This document shows, piece by piece, positions 8,980 to 27,109 of a stretch of DNA of 33,430 bases (position 1 is its first letter; every line of letters starts with the position of its first letter). Position numbers and translations under genes: made by a program. Source of the DNA: Acidimicrobiales bacterium (GTDB taxonomy: Bacteria; Actinomycetota; Acidimicrobiia; Acidimicrobiales; JBFJYB01); assembly GCA_041622835.1 (NCBI GenBank), contig JBFJYB010000001.1:1-33430 (forward strand), given 5' to 3'. The notes under the pieces were generated by a model, which did not search any database, had not been told where the DNA came from, and saw only the letters and a list, made by a program, of their open reading frames with translations.

Positions 8980-9086
8980 CCCACCGCGGGCCGACACCGC
9001 TACCGTGGATCCGGCCCGTCGAGCCCGCCCCGGCGGAGGCCGCACCCACCCATGATCCCGGCTCCCACCCCCATGACCCCGGCCCC

Positions 9087-9344: not shown

Positions 9345-9360
9345 GAAGCACAGGCGGACC

Positions 9361-10488
9361 ATGGGCTCCGACCGGCTGACGCTGGCGATCGACGCCACCC
9401 CGCTGCTCGGCCCGCGTACGGGCATCGGGACCTTCGTCGAGAACCTGCTCGGACACCTCGACCCGACCGACGTGGAGGTCACCGCCTTCTCGGTCACGTG
9501 GCGGGGGCGCCGGCTGCTCCACCGAGCGGCCCCGAAGGGGGTCCGGGTCGTCGCCCCACCGCTGCCGGCCCGGCCGCTGCGGACGCTGTGGGCCCGCCTC
9601 GGGGGTCCGCCGATCGAGTGGTTCGTCGGCGAGGCCGACGTCGTGCACGGCCCCAACTTCGTCGTGCCGCCGGCGAGGCGGGCCGCCACCGTGGTGTCGG
9701 TCGCCGATCTGACGCCCGTGCACTGGCCGGAGCTGTGCACCACGCCGGTGAGGCGCTACCCCGAGCTGATCCAACGAGCGATCGATCGAGGCGCCTTGGT
9801 CCACGCCATCTCCGACTTCGTGGCCGACGAGATCCGCGAGCACTTCGCCATCGAGCCGGACCGGGTCGCGACGGTGCACCTCGGTGTCGCCCGGCCGACC
9901 GGCACCGGCGGCGATCCGCCGCCGACCGACCGGCCCTATGTCGTGGCGACCGGAACCATCGAGCCGAGGAAGAACCTGCCGGTGCTGGTGGCCGCCTTCG
10001 ACCGGATCGCCGGTGCGATCGACCTCGACCTGGTGATCGCCGGGCCCGACGGCTGGGGTGTCGACGAGCTCGACGCCGCCATCTCGTCCAGCCCCCACCG
10101 CCGCCGCATCCACCGACTCCCCTGGATCGACGACGCCTCGCGCCAGCGGCTGGTCGCCGAGGCCGCGGTGCTCGCCTACCCGTCCCGCTACGAGGGCTTC
10201 GGGCTGCCACCGCTCGAGGCCATGGCCCTCGACACGCCGGTCGTCGCGGCCCGGGCCGGAGCGGTGCCCGAGAACGTCGGCGGCGCCGCGATCCAGGTCG
10301 AGCCGGGGGACGTCGACGGCCTCGCCGCGGCGCTGCACGACGTGCTCTCGGACGAGGCGCGGCGAGCCGAGCTGGTCGCCGCCGGCCGGCTTCGGGCCGC
10401 CGACTTCGACTGGGGCGACTGTGCCGCCGGGCTGACCGCCCTCTACCGCCGGGCCGCGTCCGACAGGGCACGCCCGCTGCGACCGTAG
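9361..10488 (+). CDS. GT4-family glycosyltransferase (GT-B, retaining type)
   Basis: The 375-aa ORF carries the C-terminal E-x7-E region PSRYEGFGLPPLEAMA. Its N-terminus, LTLAIDATPLLGPRTGIGTFVENLL, is typical of GT4 mannosyl/glycosyl transferases. Confidence 0.88.
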   Translation: MGSDRLTLAIDATPLLGPRTGIGTFVENLLGHLDPTDVEVTAFSVTWRGRRLLHRAAPKGVRVVAPPLPARPLRTLWARLGGPPIEWFVGEADVVHGPNFVVPPARRAATVVSVADLTPVHWPELCTTPVRRYPELIQRAIDRGALVHAISDFVADEIREHFAIEPDRVATVHLGVARPTGTGGDPPPTDRPYVVATGTIEPRKNLPVLVAAFDRIAGAIDLDLVIAGPDGWGVDELDAAISSSPHRRRIHRLPWIDDASRQRLVAEAAVLAYPSRYEGFGLPPLEAMALDTPVVAARAGAVPENVGGAAIQVEPGDVDGLAAALHDVLSDEARRAELVAAGRLRAADFDWGDCAAGLTALYRRAASDRARPLRP

Positions 10489-10526
10489 ACTCGTGCGATG
10501 AGCTACCACGCCGGGTGGGCCGACTG

Positions 10527-13394
<2,868 letters not shown>

Positions 13395-13398
<4 letters not shown>

Positions 13399-14093
13399 CG
13401 GCGCTCGAGATCCGCGCCGTCGACGGCCTGCCCGAGATCGAGGCGGGCGCCGACCTGGCCTCGATGATCGCATCGGCCGGCGAGCTCGTGGACGGCGACG
13501 TGGTCGTCGTCACCCAGAAGATCGTGTCGAAGGCCGAGGACGCCATCGCCGAGGTGGACCCCGACGACCCGCTGAGCCACAAGCCGCTCGTCGAGCGGGA
13601 GTCGGTGCGGATCCTGCGGCGACGGGGTGACCTGATCATCAGCGAGACCAAGCACGGGTTCGTGTGCGCCAACGCCGGCATCGACCTGTCGAACGTCGAG
13701 CGGGGTCACGCCGCGCTGCTCCCCGAGGACCCGGACCGCTCGGCCCGGCGCATCCGGGACGGCCTGCGGGCCAGGGCCGGCGTCGAGGTGGCGGTGATCG
13801 TCTCGGACACCTTCGGCCGACCGTGGCGCCGCGGCGTGACCGACGTGGCCATCGGCAGCGCCGGGATCCGGCCGGTGATCGACCTGCGCGGCACCGCCGA
13901 CGCCTTCGGCCGCGAGCTCCAGGTGACCGAGGTGGCGGTGGTCGACGAGATCGCCGCCGCCGCCGAGCTGGTCATGGGCAAGTCGGCCGGCATCCCGGTG
14001 GCCGTGGTGCGAGGCGTCGACCCGACCTGGCTGGGCGACGGCTCGGTGCGCGACGACCTGATCCGCAACCCCAGCGAGGATCTCTTTCGCTAG
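13395..14093 (+). CDS. cofE: Coenzyme F420-0:L-glutamate ligase (CofE-type, single domain)
   Basis: ATG at 13395 overlaps the cofD stop (ATGA). Motifs: LPEIEAGADLASMI...VVVVTQKIVSKAE...HGFVCANAGIDLSN...VIVSDTFGRPWRRG. At 232 aa it covers only the ligase domain. Confidence 0.88.
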
Positions 14094-14209
14094 GCGCAGC
14101 GATAATCCGCTGCGCCGCCTTCGGCATCTGGCGCCACCCGCAGCTGCGCCGACGACGCAGTCGTCGACGCCCCACCCGGAACCTCTAGGCGCAGCGATGA
14201 TCCGCAACC
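14091..14209. repeat. Short direct repeat in the cofE / His-rich-gene convergent intergenic region
   Basis: taggcgcagcgatAatccgc (14091..14110) and taggcgcagcgatGatccgc (14186..14205) match at 19 of 20 positions and lie 95 nt apart. The second copy continues as gatccgcaacc, which also occurs at the cofE 3' end (14060..14070). Confidence 0.6.
14093..14116 (+). terminator. Perfect 9-bp hairpin immediately after the cofE stop (possible intrinsic terminator, no U-tract)
   Basis: GGCGCAGCG-ataatc-CGCTGCGCC, with the stem starting at the last base of the TAG stop. It lies between convergent genes. No T-run follows, so its function as a terminator is inferred only. Confidence 0.45.
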
Positions 14210-14259
14210 AGCCGGGCGCCTCGGCGCTCGGCGGGCGAATGGCACTGTTCGCCGACTGA

Positions 14260-14931
14260 TCAGCCGCCGATGGGGGTGGGCTCGGTCAAGATGTCGGTGA
14301 CCTGCTCGATGTTGGGGATCGAGGGCGGGGGCGGGATCTCGGCGCCCAGCGGGGCCAGGGCGAAGGTGAACGCCTCGACGTTGCGGAGGAAGCGCTCGGA
14401 CTCGATGTCCTCGGTCACCACCTCGGGGGCGGTCGTCTCGGCCTCGAGTGCGTTGCTCCAGCGCAGCAGCTGGACCACCGCCGGCTCGCCGTCGCAGTCG
14501 ACGCCGGCCTCGAGCCGCTCGCCGGAGGCCAGCGTGATGGCTTCGGGCGACACGTCGATGCTGAGCTGGTCGAGGAACACCTCGAGGGTGGCGCCCTTGC
14601 CGGTGGCGTTGGCCGAGAACGGGTGGATGTGCATCAGGCCGTCGCCGTGGGTGTGGATGCCGAGCACGTCGGGGCCGACGTCGTTCTGCGGCGGCAGGTA
14701 GGACTGGGTGGTGCAGTCGTAGATGCCGTAGGCGGAGTGCCAGTGGTCGCTGAGCGTCGGCTCGGCGACCGCGTCGCGGGTGCTGCGGGCGAACGCCACC
14801 AGGGCGACCCCCAGCAACATGACGACGATGACCGCGGCAGGGAAGCCGATGGCCCGACGATCGGTCGTACGGCTGGTCGACCCGGCCCGAGCGGCGCGGG
14901 CGACCTTCTTCGCAGAGGATGCCTTACCCAT
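14260..14931 (-). CDS. Membrane-anchored extracytoplasmic His-rich protein (hypothetical)
   Basis: The 223-aa ORF has a basic N-terminus and a TM anchor (IGFPAAVIVVMLLGVALVAFA). The external domain carries HWH...C...HTHGDGLMHIHPF and ends in a Pro-rich tail. It lies 29 nt downstream of the GT4 gene on the same strand. Confidence 0.7.
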   Translation of the reverse strand: MGKASSAKKVARAARAGSTSRTTDRRAIGFPAAVIVVMLLGVALVAFARSTRDAVAEPTLSDHWHSAYGIYDCTTQSYLPPQNDVGPDVLGIHTHGDGLMHIHPFSANATGKGATLEVFLDQLSIDVSPEAITLASGERLEAGVDCDGEPAVVQLLRWSNALEAETTAPEVVTEDIESERFLRNVEAFTFALAPLGAEIPPPPSIPNIEQVTDILTEPTPIGG

Positions 14932-14960
14932 GCCCCCACGCTAACGGCGAGATCGGGGGA

Positions 14961-16211
14961 TCAGCGCTCACCCCGCCGACGGGCCTGCATCTCCTGGAAG
15001 AGCTCGACGTACGCGGCGGCGGCCGCGGTGGGCGTGAGCCACTTCTCGACGAACGTGCGGCCCGAGCGGCCCTGCTCGGCCAGGGTCTCCCTGTCGGCCA
15101 GCATCTCCCCGAGGGCCCGATCGAAGGCCCCCTGGTCGTCGGGGGCCACGCTGACGCCGGCGCCGGCGGTCTCGAGCACCCTCGACACCTCGGTACCGGG
15201 ATCGATCGACGCGAGGACCGGACGACCCGCGGCGAGGATCGAGTACAGCTTGGACGGGACGCTCGACGAGCCGAGGCCTCGGCGCAGGGGCACGACGTGC
15301 AGGTCGGCGGCCGCCAGCACCTCGGGCAGACGCTCGGCCGGCTGGTACCCGACGAACCGCACGTTCGGGAGGCCCTCGGCCCGGCGCTCGAGCTCGGCCC
15401 GGCCCGAGCCGCCACCGTTGACGACGAAGACGACGTCGTCGCGGTCGGTCATCCGGCGGGCCGCCTCGACCAGCAGCTCGACCGACTGCGAGAAGCCGAT
15501 GTTGCCGGCGTACATCACCACGGTCTCGTCGCCCAGCCCCAGCTCGCGCCGGTAGCCGTTGTCGCGCGGGCCGGGTCGGATCGCCTCGCAGTCGACGAAG
15601 TTCGGGATCACCCTGACCTCCGTGCCGTGGCCGGCTCCACTGGCCTCGAGCTTGGCGGTGACGTTGGCAGCCAGCTCCTGGCTGAGCACGGTCACGGCGT
15701 CGGCCCGCCGGTAGCACTGGCGCTCGACGGTGCGGGCCACACGGATGATCCGCTCGTTGGTGAGCGAGCCCACTGCGATGGCGACGTCGGGGAAGATGTC
15801 CTGCACGTTGAACACGAACGGCACGCGCCAGCGCCGGGCCGCGACCCAGCCGGCCTCGGCCAGCGACAACGGCGGCGACATCACCAGCACGCCGTCGGGG
15901 CGAGGTCCCCGCAGCGCCGCGACCGATGCCTCGATCGTGAAGGCGCCGAAGGCCAGGGCGCGGGCCGGCACGTTGCGCTTGTCGGTCGGGAACGGGTGGA
16001 GGCGGGTGATCTTGCCCCAGTCGACGGTCTCGGTCCGGGCCAGGCGACCCGACCACTCGGGCTCGACCCGGTTACGGAGGTACCACGGCAGCGAGGTGAC
16101 CACGTCGACCCGGTGACCGGCATCGGTGATGCCCCCGACGATCCCACCGAGCACCTCGCCCGTCGGCGCGACGTCGGGTGGGAAGTGGGGGCCGATCACG
16201 AGCAGGCGCAT
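14961..16211 (-). CDS. GT4-family glycosyltransferase (WcaI/WbuB-like)
   Basis: The real start is ATG 16211 (MRLLVIGPHFPPDVAPTGEVL...) inside track ORF 14961..16871. The protein is 416 aa. The N-terminal PHFPPD...G pattern and the C-terminal GT-B half (VPLRRGLGSSSVPSKLYSILAAGRPVLA) are typical of the WcaI/WbuB subgroup. Confidence 0.85.
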   Translation of the reverse strand: MRLLVIGPHFPPDVAPTGEVLGGIVGGITDAGHRVDVVTSLPWYLRNRVEPEWSGRLARTETVDWGKITRLHPFPTDKRNVPARALAFGAFTIEASVAALRGPRPDGVLVMSPPLSLAEAGWVAARRWRVPFVFNVQDIFPDVAIAVGSLTNERIIRVARTVERQCYRRADAVTVLSQELAANVTAKLEASGAGHGTEVRVIPNFVDCEAIRPGPRDNGYRRELGLGDETVVMYAGNIGFSQSVELLVEAARRMTDRDDVVFVVNGGGSGRAELERRAEGLPNVRFVGYQPAERLPEVLAAADLHVVPLRRGLGSSSVPSKLYSILAAGRPVLASIDPGTEVSRVLETAGAGVSVAPDDQGAFDRALGEMLADRETLAEQGRSGRTFVEKWLTPTAAAAAYVELFQEMQARRRGER

Positions 16212-16252
16212 CGGTCGGGATGCTATTGCCACCTCCGGAGAACGGGGCGGGG

Positions 16253-17221
16253 TCAGCGGCGGTCGGATTCCGCCAGCCACCCCAGGGTGCGGCCCACACC
16301 CTCCGGCATCGAGAACGGCAGGGGTCCGGTCAGCTCGTCGAGCTCGGCCGAGGGGAACGCCGAGGACGTGAGCATGTTCTCGAGGCGGAACCGGGTGAGC
16401 GGGGGCTCCGACCAGACGCCGAGGCGGGCGGCGACGTCGCCCACGGTCGCGGCGACCCGTAGCGCAGCGAGCGGGACCCGGCGAGGGGCACGACGCCCGG
16501 CTGCAGCGGCGATGGCGTCGGCGAGCTCGTCGATCGAGTACGGCGGCGTGTCGGCGAGGTAGTGCGTGCTCGACGCCTCTCCCTCGTCGAGCAGGGCGTC
16601 GATCTGGACGACAGTGTTGCCGACGAACCCGAACGCCTTGTCGACGCGGGTGCGGCCCGGGTGGACGTAGCGCCCGGCGAGGACGTGGTCGAAGAAGTCC
16701 CGGTACGGCGTTGCGAACCAGGGGCCCCAGATCGACGTCGGGCGCACGATCACCCACGAACACGCCGGCGCCCACCGCCTGACCAGCTCCTCCATCTGCT
16801 GCTTGCTGCGCCCGTAGGCGGTCGTCGGGCAGTAGTCGGTGTCGGAGGTCGGGATGTACCCGTTGCGGCACACGAGCAGGCTCGACGCGACGACGAGGCG
16901 CTCGACGCCGCCGTGGCCCTCGACCGCCGCCAGCAGGTTCTGGGTGCCCTCGGTGTTCACGGCGTAGTCGTCGGCTCCGCCACCGGTGAGATCGGTGCGA
17001 GCGGCGAGGTGCACGACATGGGTGGGGTCGGCGGCGGCGACGGCCGCCACGAGCTCGCCCCGATCCCCGACGTCACACGACCGCCAGCACGCGGCGTGGG
17101 TGGGGTCGCGAGGCGGGGCCACGTCCAGGTTCACGACCGGCTCGCCCCGAGCGACGTAGTGGGCGACCAGGTTGGTCCCGATGAAGCCCGACCCGCCGGT
17201 GACCAGCAGCCGCCGGCTCAC
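16253..17221 (-). CDS. NAD-dependent epimerase/dehydratase (extended SDR)
   Basis: GTG at 17221 overlaps the upstream stop (GTGA). Motifs are LLVTGGSGFIGTNLV (GxxGxxG) and YGRSK (YxxxK). The protein is 322 aa. Confidence 0.85.
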   Translation of the reverse strand: MSRRLLVTGGSGFIGTNLVAHYVARGEPVVNLDVAPPRDPTHAACWRSCDVGDRGELVAAVAAADPTHVVHLAARTDLTGGGADDYAVNTEGTQNLLAAVEGHGGVERLVVASSLLVCRNGYIPTSDTDYCPTTAYGRSKQQMEELVRRWAPACSWVIVRPTSIWGPWFATPYRDFFDHVLAGRYVHPGRTRVDKAFGFVGNTVVQIDALLDEGEASSTHYLADTPPYSIDELADAIAAAAGRRAPRRVPLAALRVAATVGDVAARLGVWSEPPLTRFRLENMLTSSAFPSAELDELTGPLPFSMPEGVGRTLGWLAESDRR

Positions 17222-18333
17222 CGTGACCGCCCCGCGGCCGAGGCCGCCGACCGCAGCACCGCAGCGGTCTGGTGTCCCGCCTCCTCCCACGAGAAGCGGG
17301 CCAGGTTGGCCCGCCCGGCCGCGGCGAGACGCTCGCGTTCGGCCGGGTCGGCGCCCAGCACCGCCATGGCCTCGACGAGCTGGTCGACGCGACGAGGGTG
17401 GAAGAAGCGGGCGCCGGAGCCGGCCACCTCGGGGAGCGGCCCGGCATCCGAGCAGATGAGCGGGGCATCCAGCAGCTGGGCTTCGAGCACCGGCAACCCG
17501 AAGCCCTCGTAGGTCGAGGCGTTCACGACCGCGACGGAGGACCGGTACCAGCCGGCCAGCTCGGCGTCACCCACCTCGCCGACATGGTGCACGTACCCGC
17601 CGGCGTCGTGGGCGGCGATCGCCTCGGCCAGCACGCCGTAGGGATCGGCCCCCACCACACGGAGCTCGGCGTCGACGCCGCGATCGCGGAGCTGGCCGAC
17701 GGCCTCGACGACGGTGGCCGCGTTCTTGTTCCTGGTCACCGAGGCCACCATCAAGAAGTAGGGCCGGCACGCGGGCGGCGGCACCGGCTCGACGTCGGCG
17801 AGCGCCGATCGGGCCCCCTGGTAGACGACCGTCGTCTTGCCGCGCGATGCGGGGATCAGCTCCTCGAGATCGCGCCGCGTGTTCTCGGAGACGGCGATCA
17901 CGGCCGCGCAGGCCGCGACCGATCTGGGGATGAAGGTGCGGTAGTAGGCCCGCCGCACCCGTGGGATGGCCTCGGGGCAGCGCTCGTAGTACAGGTCGTG
18001 GATCGTCACCACTCTCGCGACCGGGCCGCGCAGCGGCGAGACGTAGCCGGTGCTGAACAAGACGTCGACGCCATCGTCGGCGGCGTGCCGAGGGAGCCGG
18101 GCCTGCTCCCACAGGACTCGCCGACCGGCCGACGAGAAGCGGGGACAGGCTCTGACCGTGCACTGCGCCGCGATCTCCTCGGACGGCACGTAGCCGTCCT
18201 GCGCGTAGAGCACCAGGTCGACATCGTCCATCCTCATCAGCTGTTCGACGACCGACCACGTGTAGGTCGCGGTGCCGCTGCGTCGGCCCGGGTCGAGGAA
18301 GAGCGTGTTGACACCCACTCGGATCGGCGTCAC
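17218..18333 (-). CDS. GT4-family glycosyltransferase
   Basis: GTG at 18333 overlaps the upstream stop (GTGA). Motifs are IRVGVNTLFLDPGRRSGTATY and STYEGFGLPVLEAQ (E-x7-E). Confidence 0.88.
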   Translation of the reverse strand: MTPIRVGVNTLFLDPGRRSGTATYTWSVVEQLMRMDDVDLVLYAQDGYVPSEEIAAQCTVRACPRFSSAGRRVLWEQARLPRHAADDGVDVLFSTGYVSPLRGPVARVVTIHDLYYERCPEAIPRVRRAYYRTFIPRSVAACAAVIAVSENTRRDLEELIPASRGKTTVVYQGARSALADVEPVPPPACRPYFLMVASVTRNKNAATVVEAVGQLRDRGVDAELRVVGADPYGVLAEAIAAHDAGGYVHHVGEVGDAELAGWYRSSVAVVNASTYEGFGLPVLEAQLLDAPLICSDAGPLPEVAGSGARFFHPRRVDQLVEAMAVLGADPAERERLAAAGRANLARFSWEEAGHQTAAVLRSAASAAGRSR

Positions 18334-19487
18334 GCCCCGAGCTCCCGGTAGAGGTCGGCGATCAGCGCCGCGGTGCGCTCCCAGGTGTAGGTCGCCGCCC
18401 GCTCCTGTCCGGTCCGGCCCAGGGCCTTGGCCGCCGGCTCGTCCTCGAGCAGCCCGCCCAGGGCGTCGGCGATCTGGTCGATCGACTCCGGGTCGACCAG
18501 GAGGCCGGTCCGTCCCGCCACCTCGGCGGTGGCGGTGTCGGTCGACGTGACGACCGGCGCTCCCTGGTACATGGCTTCGAGGACCGGGAGTCCGAACCCC
18601 TCCGAGAGGCTCGGGTAGCAGAAGACGGCTGCACCCGCGTACAGGCTGCGCAGATCGTCGTCGGGGACGAACCCGAGCCGGTGCAGCTCGACCCGCGACC
18701 GCAGATCGTCGACCGGCTCACCCCACCCTTCGGGGCCGACCAGCACCAGCGCCACGCTGCGGGGCGCGAGCCGCTCGAAGGCACGGACGAGCCGGCGCAG
18801 GTTCTTACGCGGCTCCTCGGTCCCGACCCAGAGGACGTAGCGGTCGGGCAACCCGTACCGGTAGCGGACGCCGGTCACCTCGGCCGGGGTGGCAACCGGC
18901 CCGCCGACCCCCCACGGAACCACCCGGAGCCGGTCCTCGGCGATGCCGTTGGCCGAGCAGTCGTCGGCCGACGCCTGGGACGGGCACATCACCAGGTCGG
19001 CGTGCCGCCGGGTGAGCTCGAGCGAACGGGTGAAGAAGGACTGGCGCGTGGCATGGTCGGGGTGACGCAGGTAGGCGAGGTCGTGGACGGTCACCATCAG
19101 CGGCGCCCGCGACGCCGCGATGGCCGGGCTGGTCGCGTGGACGACGTCGACCTCGCCGGTCGCCCGCTCGACCACGGGCCGGCGCAATCGGTGCCACGCC
19201 TCGTACATCGCCGCGCGGGGCAGCGGCAGCGACCGAACCGGGATCGACGGGCGCCAGGGCTCGGGAGGCAGAGCTCGATGGCGAGCGGCGACGCCGACCA
19301 GCTCGAGGTCGTCGTGGGCCCCGAGCGCAGCCACCGACTCGAGCGCGGCCACCGCGGTCCCACCCGGCACCCGGTGCCAGCACTGCTCGAGGGTGATCGC
19401 GACACGGGTGACCGGGGGGCCGATCTCGTGACGGCTCGGCTCGTGGCGGCTCGACTCGACCCGGGGCATCGAGTCGGAGTCTGACAT
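18330..19487 (-). CDS. GT4-family glycosyltransferase
   Basis: The start was placed at ATG 19487, with ATG 19469 as an alternative, inside track ORF 18330..19745. Motifs are VAITLEQCWHRVPGGTA and PSLSEGFGLPVLEAMYQGAPVV. Confidence 0.85.
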   Translation of the reverse strand: MSDSDSMPRVESSRHEPSRHEIGPPVTRVAITLEQCWHRVPGGTAVAALESVAALGAHDDLELVGVAARHRALPPEPWRPSIPVRSLPLPRAAMYEAWHRLRRPVVERATGEVDVVHATSPAIAASRAPLMVTVHDLAYLRHPDHATRQSFFTRSLELTRRHADLVMCPSQASADDCSANGIAEDRLRVVPWGVGGPVATPAEVTGVRYRYGLPDRYVLWVGTEEPRKNLRRLVRAFERLAPRSVALVLVGPEGWGEPVDDLRSRVELHRLGFVPDDDLRSLYAGAAVFCYPSLSEGFGLPVLEAMYQGAPVVTSTDTATAEVAGRTGLLVDPESIDQIADALGGLLEDEPAAKALGRTGQERAATYTWERTAALIADLYRELGA

Positions 19488-19573
19488 GTCCGGTGCGAGC
19501 GCCGCCGCCACCCGACCCGCGCGCTGCGCACCGGGCGGGTTGTCGGGGTCGCGGAAGCTACGCTCGACACTCG
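19488..19573. promoter_or_regulatory. Divergent intergenic region between the GT operon and fcl (promoters expected)
   Basis: This rests on geometry only: there is an 86-nt gap between back-to-back starts at 19487 (-) and 19574 (+). No motif was called. Confidence 0.35.
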
Positions 19574-20533
19574 ATGTCGACCGATCTCGCCGACGCCCGG
19601 GTGCTCGTGACCGGGGGAACCGGGTTCCTGGGGCAGGCAGTCTGCCGCCAGCTCGTCGAGCGCGACGCCTCGGTGATCGCACCGTCGTCGGCCCAGTACG
19701 ACCTGCGGGACACCGCCCAGGCCGAGGCCGCGTTCTCCGACACATCGCCCGACGTCGTGATCCACCTGGCGGCGCGGGTCGGCGGGATCGGCGCCAACCT
19801 CGACCGGCCGGGCGATCTCTACCTCGACAACCTCCGGTTGGGTACCAACGTCATCGACGCCGCCCTCCACGCCGGAACCGGCAAGGTCGTCGTCGTCGGC
19901 ACGATCTGCTCCTACCCGAAGTACACCGAGGTCCCCTTCCGCGAGGACTCGCTGTGGACGGGGTACCCCGAGGAGACCAACGCCCCCTACGGCATCGCCA
20001 AGCTCGCCCAGCTGGTGCATCTCCAGGCCAACCGGAGCCAGTACGGCCAGGTCGGCATCTACCTCATGCCCACCAACCTCTACGGCCCCGGCGACAAGTT
20101 CAGCCCCACGGTCTCCCACGTGATCCCGGCGCTGATCAAGAAGTGCGTCGACGCGGTCGCGCTGGGCCTCGACGAGATCCAGGTGTGGGGCACCGGCAGC
20201 GCGAGCCGCGAGTTCCTGTACGTCGACGACGCGGCCCGCGGGATCGTCCTGGCTACCGAGCGCTACGACGGCGCCGAGCCGGTCAACCTCGGCACCAACA
20301 ACGAGCTACCCATCAAGGAGCTGGTCGGGCTCGTCGCCGAGGCCGCCGGCTACGAGGGCCGCATCCGCTGGGACGACTCGAAGCCCGACGGCCAGCCCCG
20401 CCGAGCGGTCGACCCGAGTCGCGCCCGGGAGCTGTTCGGGTTCGAGGCGACGACGTCGTTCGAGGAGGGGCTGCGGGCCACCGTCGCCTGGTACGTCGCC
20501 AACCGGGACCTGGCCGAGACCCGCGACCGCTGA
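19574..20533 (+). CDS. fcl: GDP-L-fucose synthase (GDP-4-keto-6-deoxy-D-mannose 3,5-epimerase/4-reductase)
   Basis: ATG at 19574 lies inside track ORF 19493..20533. Motifs: VLVTGGTGFLG, HLAARVGGIGANLDRPGDLYLDNLRLGTNVIDAA, GTICSYPKYTEVPFREDSLWTGYPEETNAPYGIAKLA, NLYGPGDKF, VWGTGSASREFLYVDD. This is the classical Fcl/WcaG pattern. Confidence 0.88.
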   Translation: MSTDLADARVLVTGGTGFLGQAVCRQLVERDASVIAPSSAQYDLRDTAQAEAAFSDTSPDVVIHLAARVGGIGANLDRPGDLYLDNLRLGTNVIDAALHAGTGKVVVVGTICSYPKYTEVPFREDSLWTGYPEETNAPYGIAKLAQLVHLQANRSQYGQVGIYLMPTNLYGPGDKFSPTVSHVIPALIKKCVDAVALGLDEIQVWGTGSASREFLYVDDAARGIVLATERYDGAEPVNLGTNNELPIKELVGLVAEAAGYEGRIRWDDSKPDGQPRRAVDPSRARELFGFEATTSFEEGLRATVAWYVANRDLAETRDR

Positions 20534-20576
20534 GCCTCCGCCGTAGCTGGGAAGGGCCGGGGTAGCCTGACCGGCG

Positions 20577-21296
20577 ATGTTGCGCGCCACTACCGACCTC
20601 TCACCCGACGAGCTGGCTCCGATGCTCGAGCAGTGGGGCCCGTGGCGGCTCGAGATCGAGTTCTCGAACGGGTTGAATACGACCGATTTCGGCGTCCAGG
20701 AGCCCTTCATCCCCGAGCCGCTCGGCAAGATCCTGCGGGTCGGGGCGGCGGTCGACCTCGAGGAGTTCCGGGGTGGGCGGGCCATCGACATCGGGTACAA
20801 CATCGGCTACAACACGATCTACCTGGCCGAGACCTACGACATGTCGGTGACCGGTGTCGACATCGGGACCCGCCACAAGGAGGTGGCCGAGTTCCTGCTC
20901 GGAGCGACGACCCTCGCCGACCAGGTCGAGTTCGTCGTGGGCGACGCGACCACGTTCACGACCCCCGAGCCGGTGGACCTGGTCCTGCACTTCGGGACGC
21001 TCTACCACCTGCCCAACCCGCTGCTGGCCGTCGAGACCACGGCCCGCAACCTCCGGCCGGGCGGCCTGCTGGCCCTCGAGACCCAGATCTACATCGGCGA
21101 GGACCAGACACTGTCGAAGTACATCAACGGGTTCATGGGCGACGACACCAACTTCTGGGCCCTCAGCCGCCAGACCCTCCGACGCGTGCTCACCCACTAC
21201 GGGTTCGTCGACATCGAGGTCCTGTTCGAGACCGAGCCCGACTACATCGGCCACGACATGGCCAGGATCATCCTGATCGCTCGCCGGGCCGCCTGA
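20577..21296 (+). CDS. Class I SAM-dependent methyltransferase (DUF1698/CmoB-like architecture)
   Basis: The ORF is 239 aa. An N-terminal beta segment (WRLEIEFSNGLNTTDFG) precedes motif I AIDIGYNIGYNTIYLA, then VTGVDI, FVVGDA, VLHFGTLYHLPNP and LRPGGLLALET. The substrate is unknown. The genomic context suggests sugar O-methylation. Confidence 0.75.
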   Translation: MLRATTDLSPDELAPMLEQWGPWRLEIEFSNGLNTTDFGVQEPFIPEPLGKILRVGAAVDLEEFRGGRAIDIGYNIGYNTIYLAETYDMSVTGVDIGTRHKEVAEFLLGATTLADQVEFVVGDATTFTTPEPVDLVLHFGTLYHLPNPLLAVETTARNLRPGGLLALETQIYIGEDQTLSKYINGFMGDDTNFWALSRQTLRRVLTHYGFVDIEVLFETEPDYIGHDMARIILIARRAA

Positions 21297-21320
21297 GCAC
21301 CGAGCTCCTCGACCGTCGGT

Positions 21321-22649
21321 TCACTCGGGCGTCGCCGTGCGGGGCTCGGCGAGGACGCCGTCCCAGTCGAGCCCGACGATCAGCTCCACCTCGCCGTCGA
21401 TCAGCTCGTCGACGGTCTCGATCTCGGCCTCGACCCCCAGCCAGCTCGCCAGCAGGCGCGCCGCGCTCCGACCTGGCTGGGTGGTGCGGATCACCGTGTC
21501 GGGTCGGCCGAAGGTGCCGGCGTCGCCGAACCCGACCACGTCGAAGCCGGCGGTGGCCAGCTCGTCGGCGACGGCCGCCCCCAGCCCCGAGGTCCCGGCC
21601 CCGTTGCTGACCAGCACCCGCACCGCCTCGGGTCGGGCGCCGCGGCCGGTGACGCCGCGGAAGACGTCGAACATGGCCGTGGCCTCGGGGCCTTCCTGGA
21701 GGCGCAGGACCTGCGAGCTGCCCAGCACGTCGTCGTAGACCGGCGGCACCATCAGCACGAGCGTGTCGGGCATGAAGGCCCGGAACCGATCACCCAGTCC
21801 GAGGATGTCGTTGGGCGTCAGCCGCTCGTCGACCACCAGGTGCTCGATCCCGACGTTGACCAGCTCGTTCCGCCGCCGGAAGTCACGCGCCCCCGTCGAC
21901 AGCGCCTGCTTCAGGACCGCGACCACGAACTCCTGCTGACGGTCGATCCTGGCCAGATCGGGCGTCACGTCGAGGTTCTGCCACTCACCGTCGACCCGCT
22001 GCTCCATGGCGCGCGACCGGACGTAGGCCAGCGCCTCGTCGGGGGTGAAGGTGTGCATCCCGGCCTGGTTGATCACCAGGCCGGTCCGGACGTCGCGGAC
22101 CGGGTTCTCGAGGAAGAGCGGCACGCCGCCCACCGTGTCGACCAGGTCGAGGAAGCCCTGGAAGTCGACCTGGAGGTAGTGGTTGACGGGGATGTCGAAG
22201 TTCTCCTCGATGGCCCGCACCAGCAGCTCGGGGCCCCCGATGGCGAGGGCGGCGTTGATTCGCTCCTCGTAGCGGGCATCGGGCAGCTCGACCACGAGGT
22301 CGCGGGGCAGCGACATGAGGTGCGCCTGGGTCGACGTGGGGTCGACCCGCAGCACCATCAGCGTGTCGGTGAGCTTGGTGTCGCCCCGGCCGATGACGAT
22401 GGCGCTGTCGGGGTCGAGGCCCTCGACCGAGTCGACGCCGATGAGAAGGAAGTTCAGTGGCTCGCCGGTCTGCACCTCCTCGCCGAGCACCGGGCCCAGG
22501 GCCACCCGGTTGAGCTTGTCCGCCTTGGACCCGGCAAAGTTCAAGGCGACGATCGCGAGCGCGCTCGACGCCGCCACGAGCACCCCGAGCAGGAGCAGGA
22601 ACCTTTGGGGCCAGGTGCGGCGCGACCGGAGTCGTCGGTGCGATGCCAT
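21321..22649 (-). CDS. LCP (LytR-CpsA-Psr) family glycopolymer-peptidoglycan ligase with LytR_C-type C-terminal domain
   Basis: ATG at 22649 (MASHRRLRSRRTWPQRFLLLLGVLVAASSALAIV, a TM anchor) lies inside track ORF 21321..22766. Motifs are NFLLIGVDS...DTLMVLRVDP...SLPRDL and a C-terminal VRVLVSNGAGTSGLGAAVADEL module. Confidence 0.88.
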   Translation of the reverse strand: MASHRRLRSRRTWPQRFLLLLGVLVAASSALAIVALNFAGSKADKLNRVALGPVLGEEVQTGEPLNFLLIGVDSVEGLDPDSAIVIGRGDTKLTDTLMVLRVDPTSTQAHLMSLPRDLVVELPDARYEERINAALAIGGPELLVRAIEENFDIPVNHYLQVDFQGFLDLVDTVGGVPLFLENPVRDVRTGLVINQAGMHTFTPDEALAYVRSRAMEQRVDGEWQNLDVTPDLARIDRQQEFVVAVLKQALSTGARDFRRRNELVNVGIEHLVVDERLTPNDILGLGDRFRAFMPDTLVLMVPPVYDDVLGSSQVLRLQEGPEATAMFDVFRGVTGRGARPEAVRVLVSNGAGTSGLGAAVADELATAGFDVVGFGDAGTFGRPDTVIRTTQPGRSAARLLASWLGVEAEIETVDELIDGEVELIVGLDWDGVLAEPRTATPE

Positions 22650-22711
22650 CGAGACGCCAACGCTACTGGGCTGTCCCCGCCGTTCGTGCCGCGGGCCGCG
22701 TCGACGGTCGC

Positions 22712-23557
22712 TCAGACCGACTCGGCGTCGCGCTCGAGCTCGACCAGCTCGAGGAAGGCGGCGCACAGCCGCGCTGCGACCGGACCGGGGGTGAAGGTCT
22801 GCTCGCCCAGGGCGGCGACCGGCACGACCCCGCGCGTCGTCGACGCTGCGACCACCTCGTCGGCGGCCTCGACCCGAGCGAGCGGGAAACGGCCGGTCCG
22901 GACCTCGATCCCCAGCATCCCGGCCACGTCGACGAGCGCCTCACGGGTTATCGAGCCCAACACTCCGAGGTCGAGCGACGGCAGCTCGAGCACCCCGTCG
23001 ACGATCCACCCGAGCGCGAAGGTCGGGCCCTCGAGGACCGTGCCGTCGGGTGAGACGAGCAGCGCGTCGTGGAAGCCGCCACGCTGGGCCTCGAGCGTGG
23101 CGGCCATGTTCGGCGCGTACGACGTGGTCTTGGCGCCGGTGAGCTCGGAGAAGTGCCCACCGGCGTGCCAGGGCGCAGATACCGGCAGGAAGCGGTAGGC
23201 GGGCGGGACGTCGTGGAGCTGCTCCCACAGGACGATGACTCGACCCGGGCTCTCGAAGAGCGGGTCGCGGCTGCCGGCGGTGACGATCACCCTCACGAAG
23301 CAGTCGCCGCCCGCACGGGCTTGCCGGCGGATCCACCCGCGGACCGCGTCCTCGTCGACCGGTGGCAGCTGGAGCTGGGCGAGGCTGCGCTGCAGGCGAG
23401 CGAGGTGCGGGTCCACCCGGAACGCCGAGCCGCCGTAGGACCGGAGCAGCTCGAAGGCTCCGTAGCCCCGCAGCAGGGCCCAGTCGAAGACCGAGATGAC
23501 CGCCTCGTCGTCACGGACGGGCTCACCGTCGACGAGCACTCGGGCGGCGGTGGTCAC
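22712..23557 (-). CDS. Fold-type IV PLP enzyme (class IV aminotransferase / aminodeoxychorismate-lyase-like)
   Basis: GTG at 23557 overlaps the upstream stop (GTGA). The protein is 281 aa. Motifs: SVFDWALLRGYGAFELLRSY, HLARLQRS, the candidate catalytic Lys in LTGAKTTSYAPNMAATLEAQRGGFHDALLV, then EGPTFALGWIV...LGSITRE. Specificity cannot be assigned. Confidence 0.8.
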   Translation of the reverse strand: MTTAARVLVDGEPVRDDEAVISVFDWALLRGYGAFELLRSYGGSAFRVDPHLARLQRSLAQLQLPPVDEDAVRGWIRRQARAGGDCFVRVIVTAGSRDPLFESPGRVIVLWEQLHDVPPAYRFLPVSAPWHAGGHFSELTGAKTTSYAPNMAATLEAQRGGFHDALLVSPDGTVLEGPTFALGWIVDGVLELPSLDLGVLGSITREALVDVAGMLGIEVRTGRFPLARVEAADEVVAASTTRGVVPVAALGEQTFTPGPVAARLCAAFLELVELERDAESV

Positions 23558-24408
23558 CGGACCGACGGGCCGGCCGCCTGAAGGCGGATCCGGGCCTCCT
23601 CGGCCCGCAGCATCTCGTAGATGTCGACGCAGGACGCCACGTGGTCCCGCCACCCCCCGGCCACCGGGAAGGACTCGACCGGTGGGGCGGGGTAGGGCTC
23701 TGGCTCGATCCCGGTGCTCTCGAGCACGGCGCGATACAGGTGACGATGGCGCCCGCCGAGGTTGTCGAGATCCAGGTCGGGCCGGGCCGGCCAGCTCAGC
23801 ATGGCCTGCTCGTAGCCCAGACCCAGCCGCTCGAGCGCCGCGGGGAACACCAGCTGAGGCTGATTTCGGAAGTCGGCGGCGTCGACGATGAAGTACGGGA
23901 TCTTCCGACGGCGACAGAGGTCGACCTGCGCCGCAAGCAGCTCCCACCCCGTCTCGACCAGCGGGAACCCCGGGTCCTCGCCGGCTTCGAGCTTCTTCGC
24001 CCGCCGCGACGCGATGCTGAGCCGGGGGTCGCGGATCAAGAAGGCGACCGGCCAGTCGGTCAGCCTGGTCAGGAGCTCGAAGTGGTCGCCCACCTGGTAC
24101 GGCATCTCCTTGACGACCAGGCCGGCGCGCTCGTGGGTCCAGTCGCCCTCGCCGAGATCGACGGGATCGGCGAGCTGCCCGCCGACGGCGTCGAGACCGG
24201 CGCCGTCGAAGTAGCAGATCTCGAAGGGCTCGTGGCTGTAGAACCGCACCGACGGCTCTCCCCACAGCACGCGGGCGAACGCGGTCGAGCTGCATCGGGG
24301 CGGCGAGACGATGACGCGGACGTCCGAGTAGCCGGCCAGCGCCCGGCGGATGGGCGCAGGGATCGCTCGCGGCCCACTGTGCTGGGTTCGGCGCGGAGGT
24401 CGAGACAT
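23554..24408 (-). CDS. Sulfotransferase-fold P-loop protein
   Basis: The ORF is 284 aa. A PAPS 5'-phosphosulfate-binding-type loop (VIVSPPRCSSTAFARVL) and a 3'-phosphate-type motif (FLIRDPRLSIASR) occur at the spacing expected for sulfotransferases. The gene is translationally coupled to the class IV aminotransferase gene. Confidence 0.7.
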   Translation of the reverse strand: MSRPPRRTQHSGPRAIPAPIRRALAGYSDVRVIVSPPRCSSTAFARVLWGEPSVRFYSHEPFEICYFDGAGLDAVGGQLADPVDLGEGDWTHERAGLVVKEMPYQVGDHFELLTRLTDWPVAFLIRDPRLSIASRRAKKLEAGEDPGFPLVETGWELLAAQVDLCRRRKIPYFIVDAADFRNQPQLVFPAALERLGLGYEQAMLSWPARPDLDLDNLGGRHRHLYRAVLESTGIEPEPYPAPPVESFPVAGGWRDHVASCVDIYEMLRAEEARIRLQAAGPSVR

Positions 24409-24520
24409 GTGGTGATCGCCCGCGTGCCAGCCCTTTGGCTACGAGGCGGGCGCCCGCATCGTAGCGTCCTGGCCACGCACGATCGGGCGACGCCGCGGTC
24501 GAAGGCCTCCCGGCTCGGCG

Positions 24521-25297
24521 TCAGGGCTCGGGGCGGAGATGGATGACGTCGCCGGCCGCCACCTCCACGTCTCCCTCGGAGGTGGCGATGACGAGATGTC
24601 CGGTGGGGCCGATCCCGGCGGCGGCGCCGATCACCGGACCGTCACCGATCTCGGCCCGTACCCGCCGTCCGAGGGTCGCCGACCGCTCGACGTAGCCGGC
24701 CCGCAGCTCCCCCACCCCACCGGCGCGAAGCCGCGAATACCACCCATCGAGCGCTCGCAGGTAGGCGACCAGCAGCTCGTGGCGGTCGACCGGTCGGCCG
24801 GCCTCGGCGGCGAGCGACGTGGCATCGAGATCGGGCGGATACCAGGTCAGGTTGCAGCCGACGCCGATCACCACTGCGGCGAGACGGTCGCCGTCGAGGA
24901 TCGAGTCCGCCAGGACACCCGCGAGCTTGACCGGCTTCCCGTCGCGCTCGACCACCAGGTCGTTCGGCCACTTGATCCTGGTGGCGACCCCCGCGACGGT
25001 CTCGCAGGCCTCGGCCAGCGCCAGTGCGGCAGCCGCCATCATCCAGTGCGCCACGGCCACCCCGATCTCGGGACGCACCAGCACCGACGCGAGCAGGGCC
25101 GAGCCCGGCGGTGCCTCCCACCGACGGTCGAGCCTCCCCCGCCCGGTCACCTGGTGGTCGGCGACGAGCACCGCTCCGTCGGGCGCGCCGCGGCGAGCGG
25201 CGGCGAGCAGATCGTCGTTGGTCGAGCCGGTCTCGGCCACCCACTCGACGCGACCGAAGCGCGTCCCGGCCAGCTCTCGGCTCACGCGGTCGGGCAT
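24521..25297 (-). CDS. birA: Biotin--[acetyl-CoA-carboxylase] ligase (group I, no N-terminal HTH)
   Basis: ATG at 25297 lies inside track ORF 24521..26806. Motifs are ETGSTNDDLLAAA, ADHQVTGRGRLDRRWEAPPGSALLASV and IKWPNDLV. The protein is 258 aa and starts directly with the catalytic domain. Confidence 0.9.
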   Translation of the reverse strand: MPDRVSRELAGTRFGRVEWVAETGSTNDDLLAAARRGAPDGAVLVADHQVTGRGRLDRRWEAPPGSALLASVLVRPEIGVAVAHWMMAAAALALAEACETVAGVATRIKWPNDLVVERDGKPVKLAGVLADSILDGDRLAAVVIGVGCNLTWYPPDLDATSLAAEAGRPVDRHELLVAYLRALDGWYSRLRAGGVGELRAGYVERSATLGRRVRAEIGDGPVIGAAAGIGPTGHLVIATSEGDVEVAAGDVIHLRPEP

Positions 25298-25369
25298 CGA
25301 CCACCACCTCCCCACGGCGGCACCTCGGCGCGTTGGCGTCCGACCCCCCGTTGTCTGCCACCATATGGC
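25298..25369. promoter_or_regulatory. Divergent intergenic region between birA and accA (promoters expected)
   Basis: This rests on geometry only: there is a 72-nt gap between back-to-back starts. No motif was called. Confidence 0.35.
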
Positions 25370-27109
25370 GTGCTCTCGAAGATCCTGATCGCCAACCGAG
25401 GCGAGATCGCGGTGCGGGTCATCCGCGCCTGCCGCGACCTCGGCATCCCGAGCGTGGCCGTCTACTCCGAGCTCGACGAGCACGCCCTGCACACCAAGCT
25501 CGCCGACGAGGCCTACGCACTGGGAGGGCAGACCGCCGCCGAGTCGTACCTCGACACCGATGCCATCCTCGACGCCATCGCCCGCAGTGGGGCCGACGGC
25601 GTGCACCCCGGATACGGCTTCTTCTCCGAGAACGCCGACTTCGCCAGGGCCATCACCGCCCGGGGGGTCACCTTCATCGGTCCGCCGCCGGAGGCGATCG
25701 AGATCATGGGCGACAAGCTCTCGTCCCGGGCCGCGGCCGAGCGGTCCGGCGTCTCCGGGGTCCCGGGCAGCGCCGACCTGGTCACCTCGCCGGACGAGGT
25801 GGCCGCGTTCGGCGCCGAGTTCGGGTACCCGCTGGCCATCAAGGCGGCCTACGGGGGCGGCGGTCGGGGAATGAAGGTGGTCGAGACCGAGGCGAGCATC
25901 GCCGCGTCGATGGAGTCGGCGAGGCGCGAGTCGCTGGCCTACTTCGGCCGCGACGAGCTGTACGTGGAGCGCTACCTCAGCAAGCCCCGTCACGTCGAGG
26001 TTCAGGTGCTGGCCGACACCCACGGGAACTGCGTGCACCTCGGGACGCGAGACTGCTCGGCCCAGCGACGGCACCAGAAGCTCATCGAGGAGGCGCCGGC
26101 ACCGGCCATCGCTCCCGACGTGCTGTCGGCGATGGGCCAAGCCGCCGTCGACGTCGCGACCGGGTGCGACTACGTCAACGCCGGCACCGTCGAGTTCCTC
26201 TACGAGAACGGCGAGTTCTACTACCTCGAGATGAACACCCGTCTCCAGGTGGAGCACCCGGTCACCGAGATGGTCACCGGCCTCGACCTCGTCGAGCAGC
26301 AGATCCGGGTCGCGTCGGGCGACGCCCTCGGCTTCGAGCAGGGTGACATCACCCTGCGCGGTCACGCCATCGAGGTCCGCATCAACGCCGAGGACCCGGC
26401 CGAGGGCGCGTTCTTGCCGTCTCCGGGGAAGATCACGGCCCTGACCATGCCCAACGGGTACGGCACGCGGTTCGACGCCGGGTACGAGAGCGGCGACGAG
26501 ATCAGCCAGTTCTACGACAACCTGCTCGGGAAGCTGATCTGCTGGGGCCCCGACCGCGATGCCGCCATCCGCCGGACCCGCCGAGCCCTCGACGAGCTGC
26601 GGGTCGAGGGGGTGGCGACGACCATCCCGGCCGACCAGGCGATCCTCGCCCATCCCGACTTCGCAGCCGTCGAGCACTCCACGAGGTGGGTCGAGGAGAT
26701 GCTCGACCTGACCGGCGTGGCGGCGAAGCCGCCGCCGCCGGTCGCCGACGACGAGGAGCGGATACGCCGTGAGATCGACGTCGAGGTCAACGGCAAGCGC
26801 TTCCACGTCGCCATGTGGGTGCCAGACCAGTCGAGCCAGCGGGCGGCGCGTCCTCGCCGCTCAGGGGTCGGCGCCGGGGCCCGCGGCGGTGGCGGCAGCG
26901 GCGACATCACCGTCCCCATGCAGGGAACGATCGTCAAGGTCCTGGTGGCGGTGGGCGACGAGGTCGAGGTCGGTCAGCCGGTGGTCGTGCTCGAGGCCAT
27001 GAAGATGGAGAACAACATCGGCGCCGACAAGGCCGGTCGGGTGAGCGAGGTGCGGGTGGCGCCGGGCGACACCGTGGGCGGCGGTGACGTCGTGGTCCGG
27101 ATCGAGTGA
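25370..27109 (+). CDS. accA: Acyl-CoA carboxylase alpha subunit (biotin carboxylase + biotin carboxyl carrier domain)
   Basis: GTG at 25370 (VLSKILIANRGEIAVRVIRACRDLGI) lies inside track ORF 24539..27109. The ATP-grasp region contains YPLAIKAAYGGGGRGMKVV, EMNTRLQVEHPVTE and a C-terminal biotinyl domain with VVLEAMKMEN. The protein is 579 aa. Confidence 0.95.
   Translation: MLSKILIANRGEIAVRVIRACRDLGIPSVAVYSELDEHALHTKLADEAYALGGQTAAESYLDTDAILDAIARSGADGVHPGYGFFSENADFARAITARGVTFIGPPPEAIEIMGDKLSSRAAAERSGVSGVPGSADLVTSPDEVAAFGAEFGYPLAIKAAYGGGGRGMKVVETEASIAASMESARRESLAYFGRDELYVERYLSKPRHVEVQVLADTHGNCVHLGTRDCSAQRRHQKLIEEAPAPAIAPDVLSAMGQAAVDVATGCDYVNAGTVEFLYENGEFYYLEMNTRLQVEHPVTEMVTGLDLVEQQIRVASGDALGFEQGDITLRGHAIEVRINAEDPAEGAFLPSPGKITALTMPNGYGTRFDAGYESGDEISQFYDNLLGKLICWGPDRDAAIRRTRRALDELRVEGVATTIPADQAILAHPDFAAVEHSTRWVEEMLDLTGVAAKPPPPVADDEERIRREIDVEVNGKRFHVAMWVPDQSSQRAARPRRSGVGAGARGGGGSGDITVPMQGTIVKVLVAVGDEVEVGQPVVVLEAMKMENNIGADKAGRVSEVRVAPGDTVGGGDVVVRIE

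Follow-up and report, generated by a model that had tools for sequence, protein, structure and literature searches.

A Sulfotransferase-Fold Gene Paired with a Core Class IV PLP Enzyme Gene in Four Lineages of Acidimicrobiia

Organization of the Locus

The DNA analyzed here (the window) is a stretch of 33,430 nucleotides from an Acidimicrobiales bacterium (contig JBFJYB010000001.1 of assembly GCA_041622835.1), with a G+C content of 72% and genes with matches of about 99% in the metagenome-assembled genomes (MAGs) GCA_041610655.1 and GCA_041615395.1, among others. Its minus strand carries two adjacent genes, encoding a sulfotransferase-fold protein (hereafter ST) and a class IV pyridoxal 5′-phosphate (PLP) enzyme (hereafter AT), which lie between a birA-like gene and an LCP-family glycopolymer ligase gene (table 1). 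A first-pass annotation, made from the sequence alone, had recognized this pair, and its description of the layout was confirmed: both domain assignments hold as Pfam matches (PF19798 for ST and PF01063 for AT), as do the overlap of the AT start codon with the ST stop codon (GTGA), the 62-nt gap that follows AT, and the co-orientation with the LCP gene. The domains of the birA-like protein (PF03099/PF02237) were called in the near-identical contigs L001, L002, L152, and L153, and also in the related locus L155.

The same annotation had taken the overlap to indicate stoichiometric co-expression, a claim that the contig itself does not favor. Overlaps of 4 nt occur in at least three further gene pairs of this contig (GT4/GT4, GT4/epimerase, and cofE/cofD), so that an overlap of this kind marks an operon and says nothing special about stoichiometry. 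In two relatives (loci L151 and L009), AT starts at the codon preceding the motif RVL[IV]DG; the window has GCC at that codon, and its AT must therefore start either at the overlapping GTG or at a GTG located 18 nt downstream. Shine-Dalgarno sequences are absent at both candidate GTG starts. Whichever is used, ST and AT are no more than 14 nt apart, as would be consistent with coupling. The junction varies among relatives, from an ATGA overlap in L155 to spacings of 21 nt in L151 and about 50 nt in L009. No promoter- or terminator-like site was found in the 62-nt spacer between AT and the LCP gene, and a scan of positions 21200–25400 was uninformative.

Table 1. Features of the ST–AT Locus and of the Neighboring Glycan Cluster (Window Coordinates)
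Feature	Position	Strand	Details
ST gene (PF19798 sulfotransferase-fold)	23554..24408	minus	ATG 24408; TGA 23556-23554; 284 aa
AT gene (class IV PLP enzyme)	22712..23557	minus	GTG 23557-23555; TGA 22714-22712; 281 aa
GTGA overlap, AT start GTG / ST stop TGA	23554..23557	minus	Read directly from the sequence
AT–LCP spacer	22650..22711	minus	62 nt, AT stop to LCP start
LCP-family glycopolymer ligase gene	21321..22649	minus	ATG 22649; 442 aa; PF03816 and PF13399; TIGR00350, 121 bits; context
Biotin-protein ligase (birA-like) gene	24521..25297	minus	112 nt upstream of ST; context
GT2-like protein	5785-9180	minus	1131 aa; glycan cluster
GT4	9361-10488		Glycan cluster
GDP-mannose 4,6-dehydratase	11201-12466		Glycan cluster
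F420 gene cofD	12169-13398		Interrupts glycan cluster
F420 gene cofE	about 13493-14191		Interrupts glycan cluster
Three GT4 and an epimerase	about 14961-19487	minus	Glycan cluster
Second epimerase	about 19574-20533		Glycan cluster
Methyltransferase	20577-21296		Glycan cluster

Sequence and Predicted Structure of the Two Proteins

ST matches the Pfam family PF19798 (Sulfotransfer_5) with 34.4 bits for a cut-off of 23.2 (E-value 2e-8; model positions 6–207 of 226). No NCBIfam family was matched, and no sequence-level relative was found in the PDB, even at an E-value of 10. In the search for homologs, 376 clusters were found among the candidates scored; of the top 120, nearly all show 50–61% identity to ST, and every one is a single-domain protein of 246–315 aa. 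The protein is marked by the motifs SPPRCSST, HEPFE, KEMPYQ, RDPRLSIASR, and DNLGGRHRHLY. In an alignment of 26 homologs from several phyla, with a mean column identity of 61%, residues S35, P36, P37, R38, C39, S41, T42, R126, P128, S134, and R135 are invariant, and further invariant positions fall within SPPRC-ST, Y-HEPFE, KEMP-Q, and DNL-G-H-HLY.

The AlphaFold model of ST (mean pLDDT 91.3, pTM 0.89) places SPPRCSST (residues 35–42) between a strand (30–34) and a helix (41–49), with R126 and S134 at the junction of strand 121–125 and helix 128–141. In sulfotransferases that depend on 3′-phosphoadenosine-5′-phosphosulfate (PAPS), the 5′-phosphosulfate loop, with the consensus P-[KR]-x-[GS]-[ST]-T, and the R...S motif that binds the 3′-phosphate are arranged in the same way. 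When the model was compared with the PDB by Foldseek, all of the 16 best matches were sulfotransferases (probability 1.0), with TM scores of only 0.35–0.50; they include CurM-ST (4gbm), OLS-ST (4gox), TPST1/2, Stf0, and NDST1. The P-loop sulfotransferase fold, the PRxxST-type loop, the R...S motif, and the above-cut-off Pfam score are what ST shares with the PF19798/PAPS superfamily, and its nearest solved folds are the activating domains of CurM and OLS, the tyrosylprotein sulfotransferases (3ap1 and 5wrj), and Stf0 (1tex). It differs from all solved structures by an identity of only 11–19%, and from solved sulfotransferases by invariant motifs of its own (HEPFE, KEMPYQ, and DNLGG.H.HLY). On the basis of its motifs and of the model, ST is predicted to be a PAPS-type sulfotransferase, distant from every characterized one, that would use PAPS as sulfate donor. 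No PAPS-synthesis genes were found within the 33-kb window.

A pattern-seeded scan, with one genome per GTDB species, located ST genes in 60 species-level genomes from more than ten phyla, at 40–57% identity. The taxa include Anaerolineales, Acidobacteriota, Rhodothermales, Bacteroidota, Planctomycetota, Gemmatimonadota, Myxococcota, Patescibacteria, Streptomyces, Solirubrobacterales, and others. Judged from these sequences, the family is highly conserved yet patchily distributed among bacteria, that is, a set of very similar sulfotransferases that hop between phyla. A close homolog of 355 aa (P0268, 245 bits to the family profile) begins with an N-terminal FFFFFFFKQKTAYEMLRSLVGSEMCIRDRVSTQSTG stretch, which resembles a translated adaptor or artifact from a eukaryotic transcriptome assembly and suggests that a stand-alone form of ST exists in some microbial eukaryotes. 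In another protein (P0309, 5048 aa), a 30-residue part of the profile (positions 141–170) recurs as 54 matches; the protein probably consists of repeats, and the resemblance to ST would be due to chance or composition.

AT scores 150.9 bits against PF01063 (Aminotran_4). It contains K143, aligned with the Schiff-base lysine of the branched-chain aminotransferase (BCAT) 5mqz, and E176, aligned with the glutamate of the same enzyme that binds the pyridine nitrogen; both residues, as well as R30 and R89, are invariant in 29 homologs. It falls below every NCBIfam equivalog cut-off for BCAT, ADCL (aminodeoxychorismate lyase), and DAAT (D-amino-acid transaminase). The best score is that of the actinobacterial ADCL model NF005888 (112 bits for a cut-off of 273), followed by those of BCAT PRK08320 (103 for 363), DAAT PRK06680 (92 for 320), and ilvE_I (88 for 246). 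Searched against the PDB, the AT family profile retrieves archaeal and thermophile BCATs (159–147 bits) ahead of CpuTA1 (133), DAAT (113), and Rv0812 (95), while the structure model has CpuTA1 and the A. fulgidus BCAT tied as best matches and superimposes on Rv0812 with a TM score of 0.8. Assignment as a BCAT, a DAAT, or an ADCL was attempted and set aside, sequence, profile, and structure all giving ties between the classes.

Residues R30 and R89 of AT align with R51 and K117 of CpuTA1, for which the authors of that structure proposed a role in carboxylate binding that underlies its D/R preference (PMC5131300). CpuTA1 also served as the molecular-replacement model for Rv0812, a bifunctional ADC-lyase/D-amino-acid transaminase of M. 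tuberculosis (PMC8105722). These two actinobacterial class IV enzymes (5k3w and 6q1q), with D-amino-acid/(R)-amine transaminase and ADC-lyase activities, are close known counterparts of AT. AT resembles them in its fold, its catalytic Lys and Glu, its Arg at the position of R51 of CpuTA1, and its basic residue at that of K117; they rank at or near the top of its structural matches, and, like Rv0812, it is a conserved, single-copy-looking gene of an actinobacterial lineage. On the other hand, it is only 25–28% identical to them, and its family profile scores the archaeal and thermophile BCATs somewhat higher. From BCATs it differs by the absence of the Tyr95/Gly38 signature and of the Asn of the EGxxxN motif. 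By sequence and model, AT would be an intact class IV transaminase/lyase of a CpuTA1/Rv0812/BCAT-like grade. Its closest named homologs among the top 120 matches come from Acidimicrobiia MAGs.

Conservation of the Gene Pair

We examined the pairing from both sides. As exact peptide patterns served as seeds, the locus scans sample the conserved core of each family, and the homolog searches considered the best 120–150 matches each. Because calling open reading frames (ORFs) in high-G+C DNA yields spurious ones, neighbor counts rest on tblastn and Pfam matches. From the ST side, an AT homolog was found in the flanks at one of the 60 loci, that of an Acidimicrobiia MAG (L009); at 52 of the 60, the sequence downstream of ST extends for 900 nt or more. 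Two other long contigs with ST show unrelated contexts. From the AT side, motifs of the AT family were used to seed a scan of metagenomes, which gave 80 ortholog loci, at 45–56% identity, none of which has an ST or LCP gene, although 50 of them have enough upstream sequence to hold a whole ST gene. These loci have a synteny of their own, in which AT is directly preceded by nadE in 32 of 57 informative cases and directly followed by pckA in 15 of 62. The four closest context-checked orthologs outside the window's lineage (P0126, P0127, P0129, and P0130, with 60–63% identity) likewise stand in a nadE–AT or AT–pckA context with no ST, in the order nadE-AT(-pckA-x-x-GGDEF/HD-mgtE).

The pair was verified in four lineages only, all of them Acidimicrobiia, with ST identities of 53–74% and AT identities of 55–80%. 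Its surroundings differ: the order is nadE-ST-AT in L009 (AT 64% identical) and x-ST-AT-pckA in L151 (AT 55%), whereas birA-ST-AT-LCP is the order in L155 (ST 73%, AT 80%) and in every MAG of the window species. Neither nadE nor pckA occurs within the 33 kb of the window. In a neighbor-joining tree of AT, the ST-linked sequences, L151 on one side and the group of L009, the window, L155, and P0122 on the other, bracket the ST-free clade of P0126, P0127, P0129, and P0130; in the corresponding ST tree, the Acidimicrobiia sequences form one loose group. ST-linked and ST-free ATs cannot be told apart at any alignment column, except for a conservative L versus I/V at position 38. Conservation of the adjacency, as expected by the first-pass annotation, is thus borne out beyond a single genome, in four lineages and two flanking contexts, and fails outside Acidimicrobiia. 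The view of AT as a dedicated partner of ST does not stand, since its ortholog group mostly lacks ST and has a conserved nadE–AT–pckA context. As for the possibility that AT is a housekeeping ortholog, it proves to be a core, partner-independent gene with stable synteny, but one that lies below the equivalog cut-offs of IlvE, PabC, and Dat. Acidimicrobiia contain a conserved class IV enzyme, encoded next to nadE, that these cut-offs do not assign to a class.

Three further observations concern these loci. A possible fifth adjacency, between P0012 (ST) and P0143 (AT), both from 1724-nt Logan contigs, was not counted, about one or two such coincidences of length being expected by chance. In L147 and L148 (4465–5000), nadE and AT are separated by a 537-nt stretch without a called gene, where the same junction measures 29 nt in L149 and L150; tblastn found no ST remnant in this stretch at an E-value below 1. 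Finally, the MAG GCA_041577655.1 has two distinct nadE–AT loci (L150 and L158, with ATs P0129 and P0127), either because the bin mixes strains or because of a duplication.

Origin and Possible Function of the Pair

The ST–AT pair is an ordinary, lineage-restricted operon neighborhood around a core transaminase, and, as its distribution is so restricted, it should not serve to annotate either family. The explanation that we favor, and regard as somewhat more probable than not, is that a gene for an accessory PAPS-type sulfotransferase was inserted before that of a core class IV enzyme, the two being co-transcribed, with AT functioning independently of ST and no general functional couple between them. 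ST would be accessory and independent of AT because an AT gene lies nearby in a single one of the 60 ST genomes, which span more than ten phyla. Conversely, AT would be core and independent of ST because of the absence of ST from all 80 ortholog loci, the nadE/pckA synteny, and the lack of any distinguishing residue other than position 38.

The simplest history that we infer comprises one insertion, loss in some descendants, and one relocation of ST and AT together. In an ancestor within Acidimicrobiia, ST would have been inserted between nadE and AT, and some descendants would have lost it again. In the lineage of the window, the ST–AT block would then have been relocated in one piece to a position between birA and the LCP gene with its cell-wall glycan cluster, where the two reading frames would have come to overlap. 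There, ST and AT would be co-transcribed and possibly translationally coupled, while AT would keep an ST-independent role, consistent with its normal place in Acidimicrobiia between nadE and pckA. This scenario is drawn from the arrangements nadE-ST-AT in L009, ST-AT-pckA in L151, and birA-ST-AT-LCP in the window and L155, from the lack of nadE and pckA in the window, and from the ST-linked ATs that bracket the ST-free clade.

Several points weigh against this explanation. Every verified ST of Acidimicrobiia, in all four lineages, lies immediately upstream of AT, and the two genes stayed joined through a rearrangement that split AT from nadE and pckA; such retention would be expected under selection for co-expression. 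Moreover, the ST family is found elsewhere beside enzymes of PLP-dependent amino-acid metabolism (SbnA, its partner SbnB, ThrC-like, and TrpB2-like proteins), so that a PLP transaminase is not implausible as a working partner. The pattern-seeded genome searches cover conserved rather than divergent family members, and both trees are neighbor-joining trees without support values. We consider it possible, though less likely than not, that metabolites pass between AT and ST; none of our results requires such a hand-over.

A serious rival, though we hold it only tentatively, is therefore a genuine two-step pathway restricted to these Acidimicrobiia, in which AT would make or consume the amino group of a small metabolite, such as a D-amino acid or an amine, ST would sulfate its N or O from PAPS, and overlapping translation would keep both enzymes at matched levels. 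The persistence of the adjacency in four lineages and two flanking contexts would fit such a pathway, as would the tightening of the gap between ST and AT, from 21–50 nt to a 4-nt overlap, and the survival of the pair when the otherwise well-conserved link between nadE and AT was broken. The company kept by the ST family elsewhere, beside or fused with amino-group enzymes (SbnA and SbnB homologs at 21 and 15 of 60 loci, SbnB–ST fragments, and a fusion with a Lys/Orn N-monooxygenase), points in the same direction, and the CpuTA1-type residues R30 and R89 of AT fit D- or R-selective substrates. However, AT orthologs without ST are the rule and carry no distinguishing residue, ST has no adjacent class IV gene in 59 of the 60 genomes, and no fusion of the two was found in our searches. 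Moreover, a single ancestral insertion followed by vertical inheritance would explain all four adjacencies without selection.

Search for Fusion Proteins and Comparison with Plants

The first-pass annotation had proposed that the pair is the split form of a protein fusion found in plants. The plant proteins in question, At3g05190 and At5g27410, are annotated as branched-chain-amino-acid aminotransferase-like and, according to that annotation, would be fusions of a sulfotransferase-like and a class IV domain; if this is right, they would combine the same two superfamilies as the pair. We looked for proteins with both PF19798 and PF01063 and found none among the top 120 homologs of ST or the top 120 homologs of AT. 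An exhaustive search with the ST profile, covering 1.84 billion representatives, gave 960 matches; Pfam scanning of the full-length sequences revealed no such fusion in the 90 present among the best 150 of these 960, nor were the plant proteins among these best 150. Nor did a fusion appear among the 79 matches to the profile of a divergent subfamily with the motif IRNP. In total, PF01063 was present in none of about 400 domain-scanned family members, and the description of the locus as a split fusion was not supported.

The fusions that were found involve other partners. A group of four proteins of 542–627 aa (P0326, P0335, P0380, and P0397) joins ST to a NUDIX hydrolase, a single protein (P0285, 720 aa) joins it to a Lys/Orn N-monooxygenase, and two proteins (P0379 and P0359), both fragmentary and possibly read-through gene calls, join it to an OCD/SbnB-like domain. 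The divergent subfamily mentioned above (P0321, P0333, P0337, P0338, P0341, P0346, P0348, and others; alignment A5) consists of proteins of 390–530 aa with an insertion of about 50–110 aa and the motifs [SA]PPR[ST]xST, IRNPLL..ESR, and D[ST]T[DE].RL.PE. Those of its members with a named source belong to Patescibacteria and other candidate phyla, and some members have a long conserved C-terminal extension without a Pfam match.

The full form of the proposal, in which a sulfo- or phospho-transfer step would be combined with transamination or elimination and tied to the envelope through the LCP gene, is improbable in our view. It can draw on the presence and probable co-expression of both domain types, on the subfamily motifs IRNP...ESR and [IV][IV]D[ST]T[DE].RL.PE of PF19798, which resemble those that the first-pass annotation gave for the plant proteins, and on the eukaryote-like transcript encoding the close ST homolog P0268. 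Besides the absence of fusions, two of the three observations that the first-pass annotation had itself set against its reading were made here: the adjacency is not seen outside one class, and AT is a core ortholog that occurs without ST. The LCP gene, furthermore, is a neighbor in two close lineages only and is replaced by pckA in L151. A census of 42 plant genomes used PF19798 at an E-value of 1e-3 with InterPro verification; its Arabidopsis list includes neither At5g27410 nor At3g05190, and its supplementary table has at least one PF19798-only entry, CteSOT58 (PMC12506393). Had the proposal held, it would have pointed to the function of an uncharacterized plant fusion and to a new pathway linked to the envelope; our evidence falls short of this, and the pair is probably not a split plant fusion.

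Relation to the LCP Gene and the Envelope Glycan Cluster

The link to the envelope rested on the LCP gene downstream of AT. This gene follows the pair solely in the window species and L155; pckA takes its place in L151, and none of the 80 AT loci has it. From the ST side, a Pfam census of immediate neighbors in the 60 genomes showed PALP and OCD and otherwise scattered families, with no recurrent glycosyltransferase or LCP gene. The envelope connection is not supported. Also improbable is the idea that ST sulfates the cell-wall glycopolymer attached by the LCP enzyme, with AT as a bystander: ST does lie upstream of the LCP gene, which adjoins a cluster with three GT4 genes, two epimerase genes, and a methyltransferase gene and, farther upstream, genes for a GT2, a GT4, and a GDP-mannose dehydratase, but no glycosyltransferase or LCP gene recurs beside the ST family in the 59 other genomes, the pair stands among nadE and pckA in L009 and L151, and the best fold matches of ST are small-molecule, acyl-carrier-protein-tethered, or peptide sulfotransferases rather than polysaccharide ones. 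The large cell-envelope glycan cluster surrounding the LCP gene extends over positions 5785–21296 and 21321–22649 of the window.

Recurrent Neighbors of the ST Family in Other Genomes

By ORF clustering, the neighbors of ST at the 60 loci include a CysK/SbnA-like fold-type II PLP enzyme (21 loci), an SbnB-like dehydrogenase of the OCD family (15), and a ThrC-like PLP enzyme (9). At least one of the three is present at 24 of the 60 loci, and this is the sole recurrent neighborhood of ST. Representatives exceed the respective NCBIfam cut-offs, with 407 bits for SbnA (TIGR03945; cut-off 350), 376 for SbnB (TIGR03944; 327), and 311 for the ThrC-like protein (PRK08197; 303). These PLP partners offer a stronger and more concrete lead, on sulfated amino-acid metabolism, than the pair itself.

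SbnA and SbnB form the module that makes L-2,3-diaminopropionate, and ST is an immediate neighbor of its SbnA-like and SbnB-like members in the numbers just given. The substrate of SbnA is O-phospho-L-serine, supplied in Staphylococcus by the serine kinase SbnI during the synthesis of staphyloferrin B; O-phosphoserine is also a reported substrate of TrpB2 enzymes, and O-phospho-amino acids are the substrates of threonine and cysteate synthases. As the characterized relatives of the neighboring PLP enzymes (SbnA with its partner SbnB, ThrC-like or cysteate-synthase-like enzymes, and in one case TrpB2) use O-phospho-amino acids, and as the family also occurs fused to SbnB-like and N-hydroxylase domains, ST could supply an O-sulfated hydroxy-amino acid. 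By analogy, its product could be O-sulfo-L-serine, standing in for O-phosphoserine in a role like that of SbnI, or O-sulfo-homoserine, or else a sulfated L-2,3-diaminopropionate. More generally, the family, of which the ST of the window is a typical member, might consist of amino-acid-directed "activating" or N-sulfating sulfotransferases that work with PLP enzymes, with AT as a lineage-specific PLP partner in Acidimicrobiia. We consider this reading, including the products just named, doubtful. The idea of amino-acid sulfation has no direct bearing on the window, because the window, unlike the staphyloferrin B system, contains neither sbnA nor sbnB. A literature search for sulfotransferases associated with SbnA/SbnB, or for O-sulfoserine as an intermediate of biosynthesis, returned nothing relevant. 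If the idea were true, sediment and marine bacteria would make a sulfated amino-acid metabolite that is widespread and was not recognized before.

The arrangement of these genes varies. A compact cassette of ST, SbnA-like, SbnB, and ThrC-like genes occurs at loci L010, L014, L023, L027, L033, L040, L049, and L157 (e.g., L027:5971–10317 and L014:5965–10145), in MAGs of Bacteroidota, Rhodothermales, Opitutales, and Xanthomonadaceae, the order in L157 being ST-SbnB-ThrC-like-SbnA-like. The flanks outside the four genes vary, and no siderophore synthetase or non-ribosomal peptide synthetase was found near the cassettes examined. At L156 (3434–5828), a TrpB2-like PLP enzyme gene (737 bits, NF009057/PRK12391) lies 203 nt upstream of an ST homolog, which the tree places with the STs of Acidimicrobiia. 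In uncultured Actinomycetes, Conexibacter, and Solirubrobacterales (L055, L057–L061, L064, and L066; e.g., L061:1836–6756 and L066:1322–6798), an sbnA-sbnB-ST trio is preceded by a gene for a 714–748-aa LeuRS-like paralog of class I aminoacyl-tRNA synthetases, which could be a resistance gene or serve an aminoacyl-tRNA-dependent step; several of the loci continue with a GCS2 glutamate-cysteine-ligase-like gene on the opposite strand.

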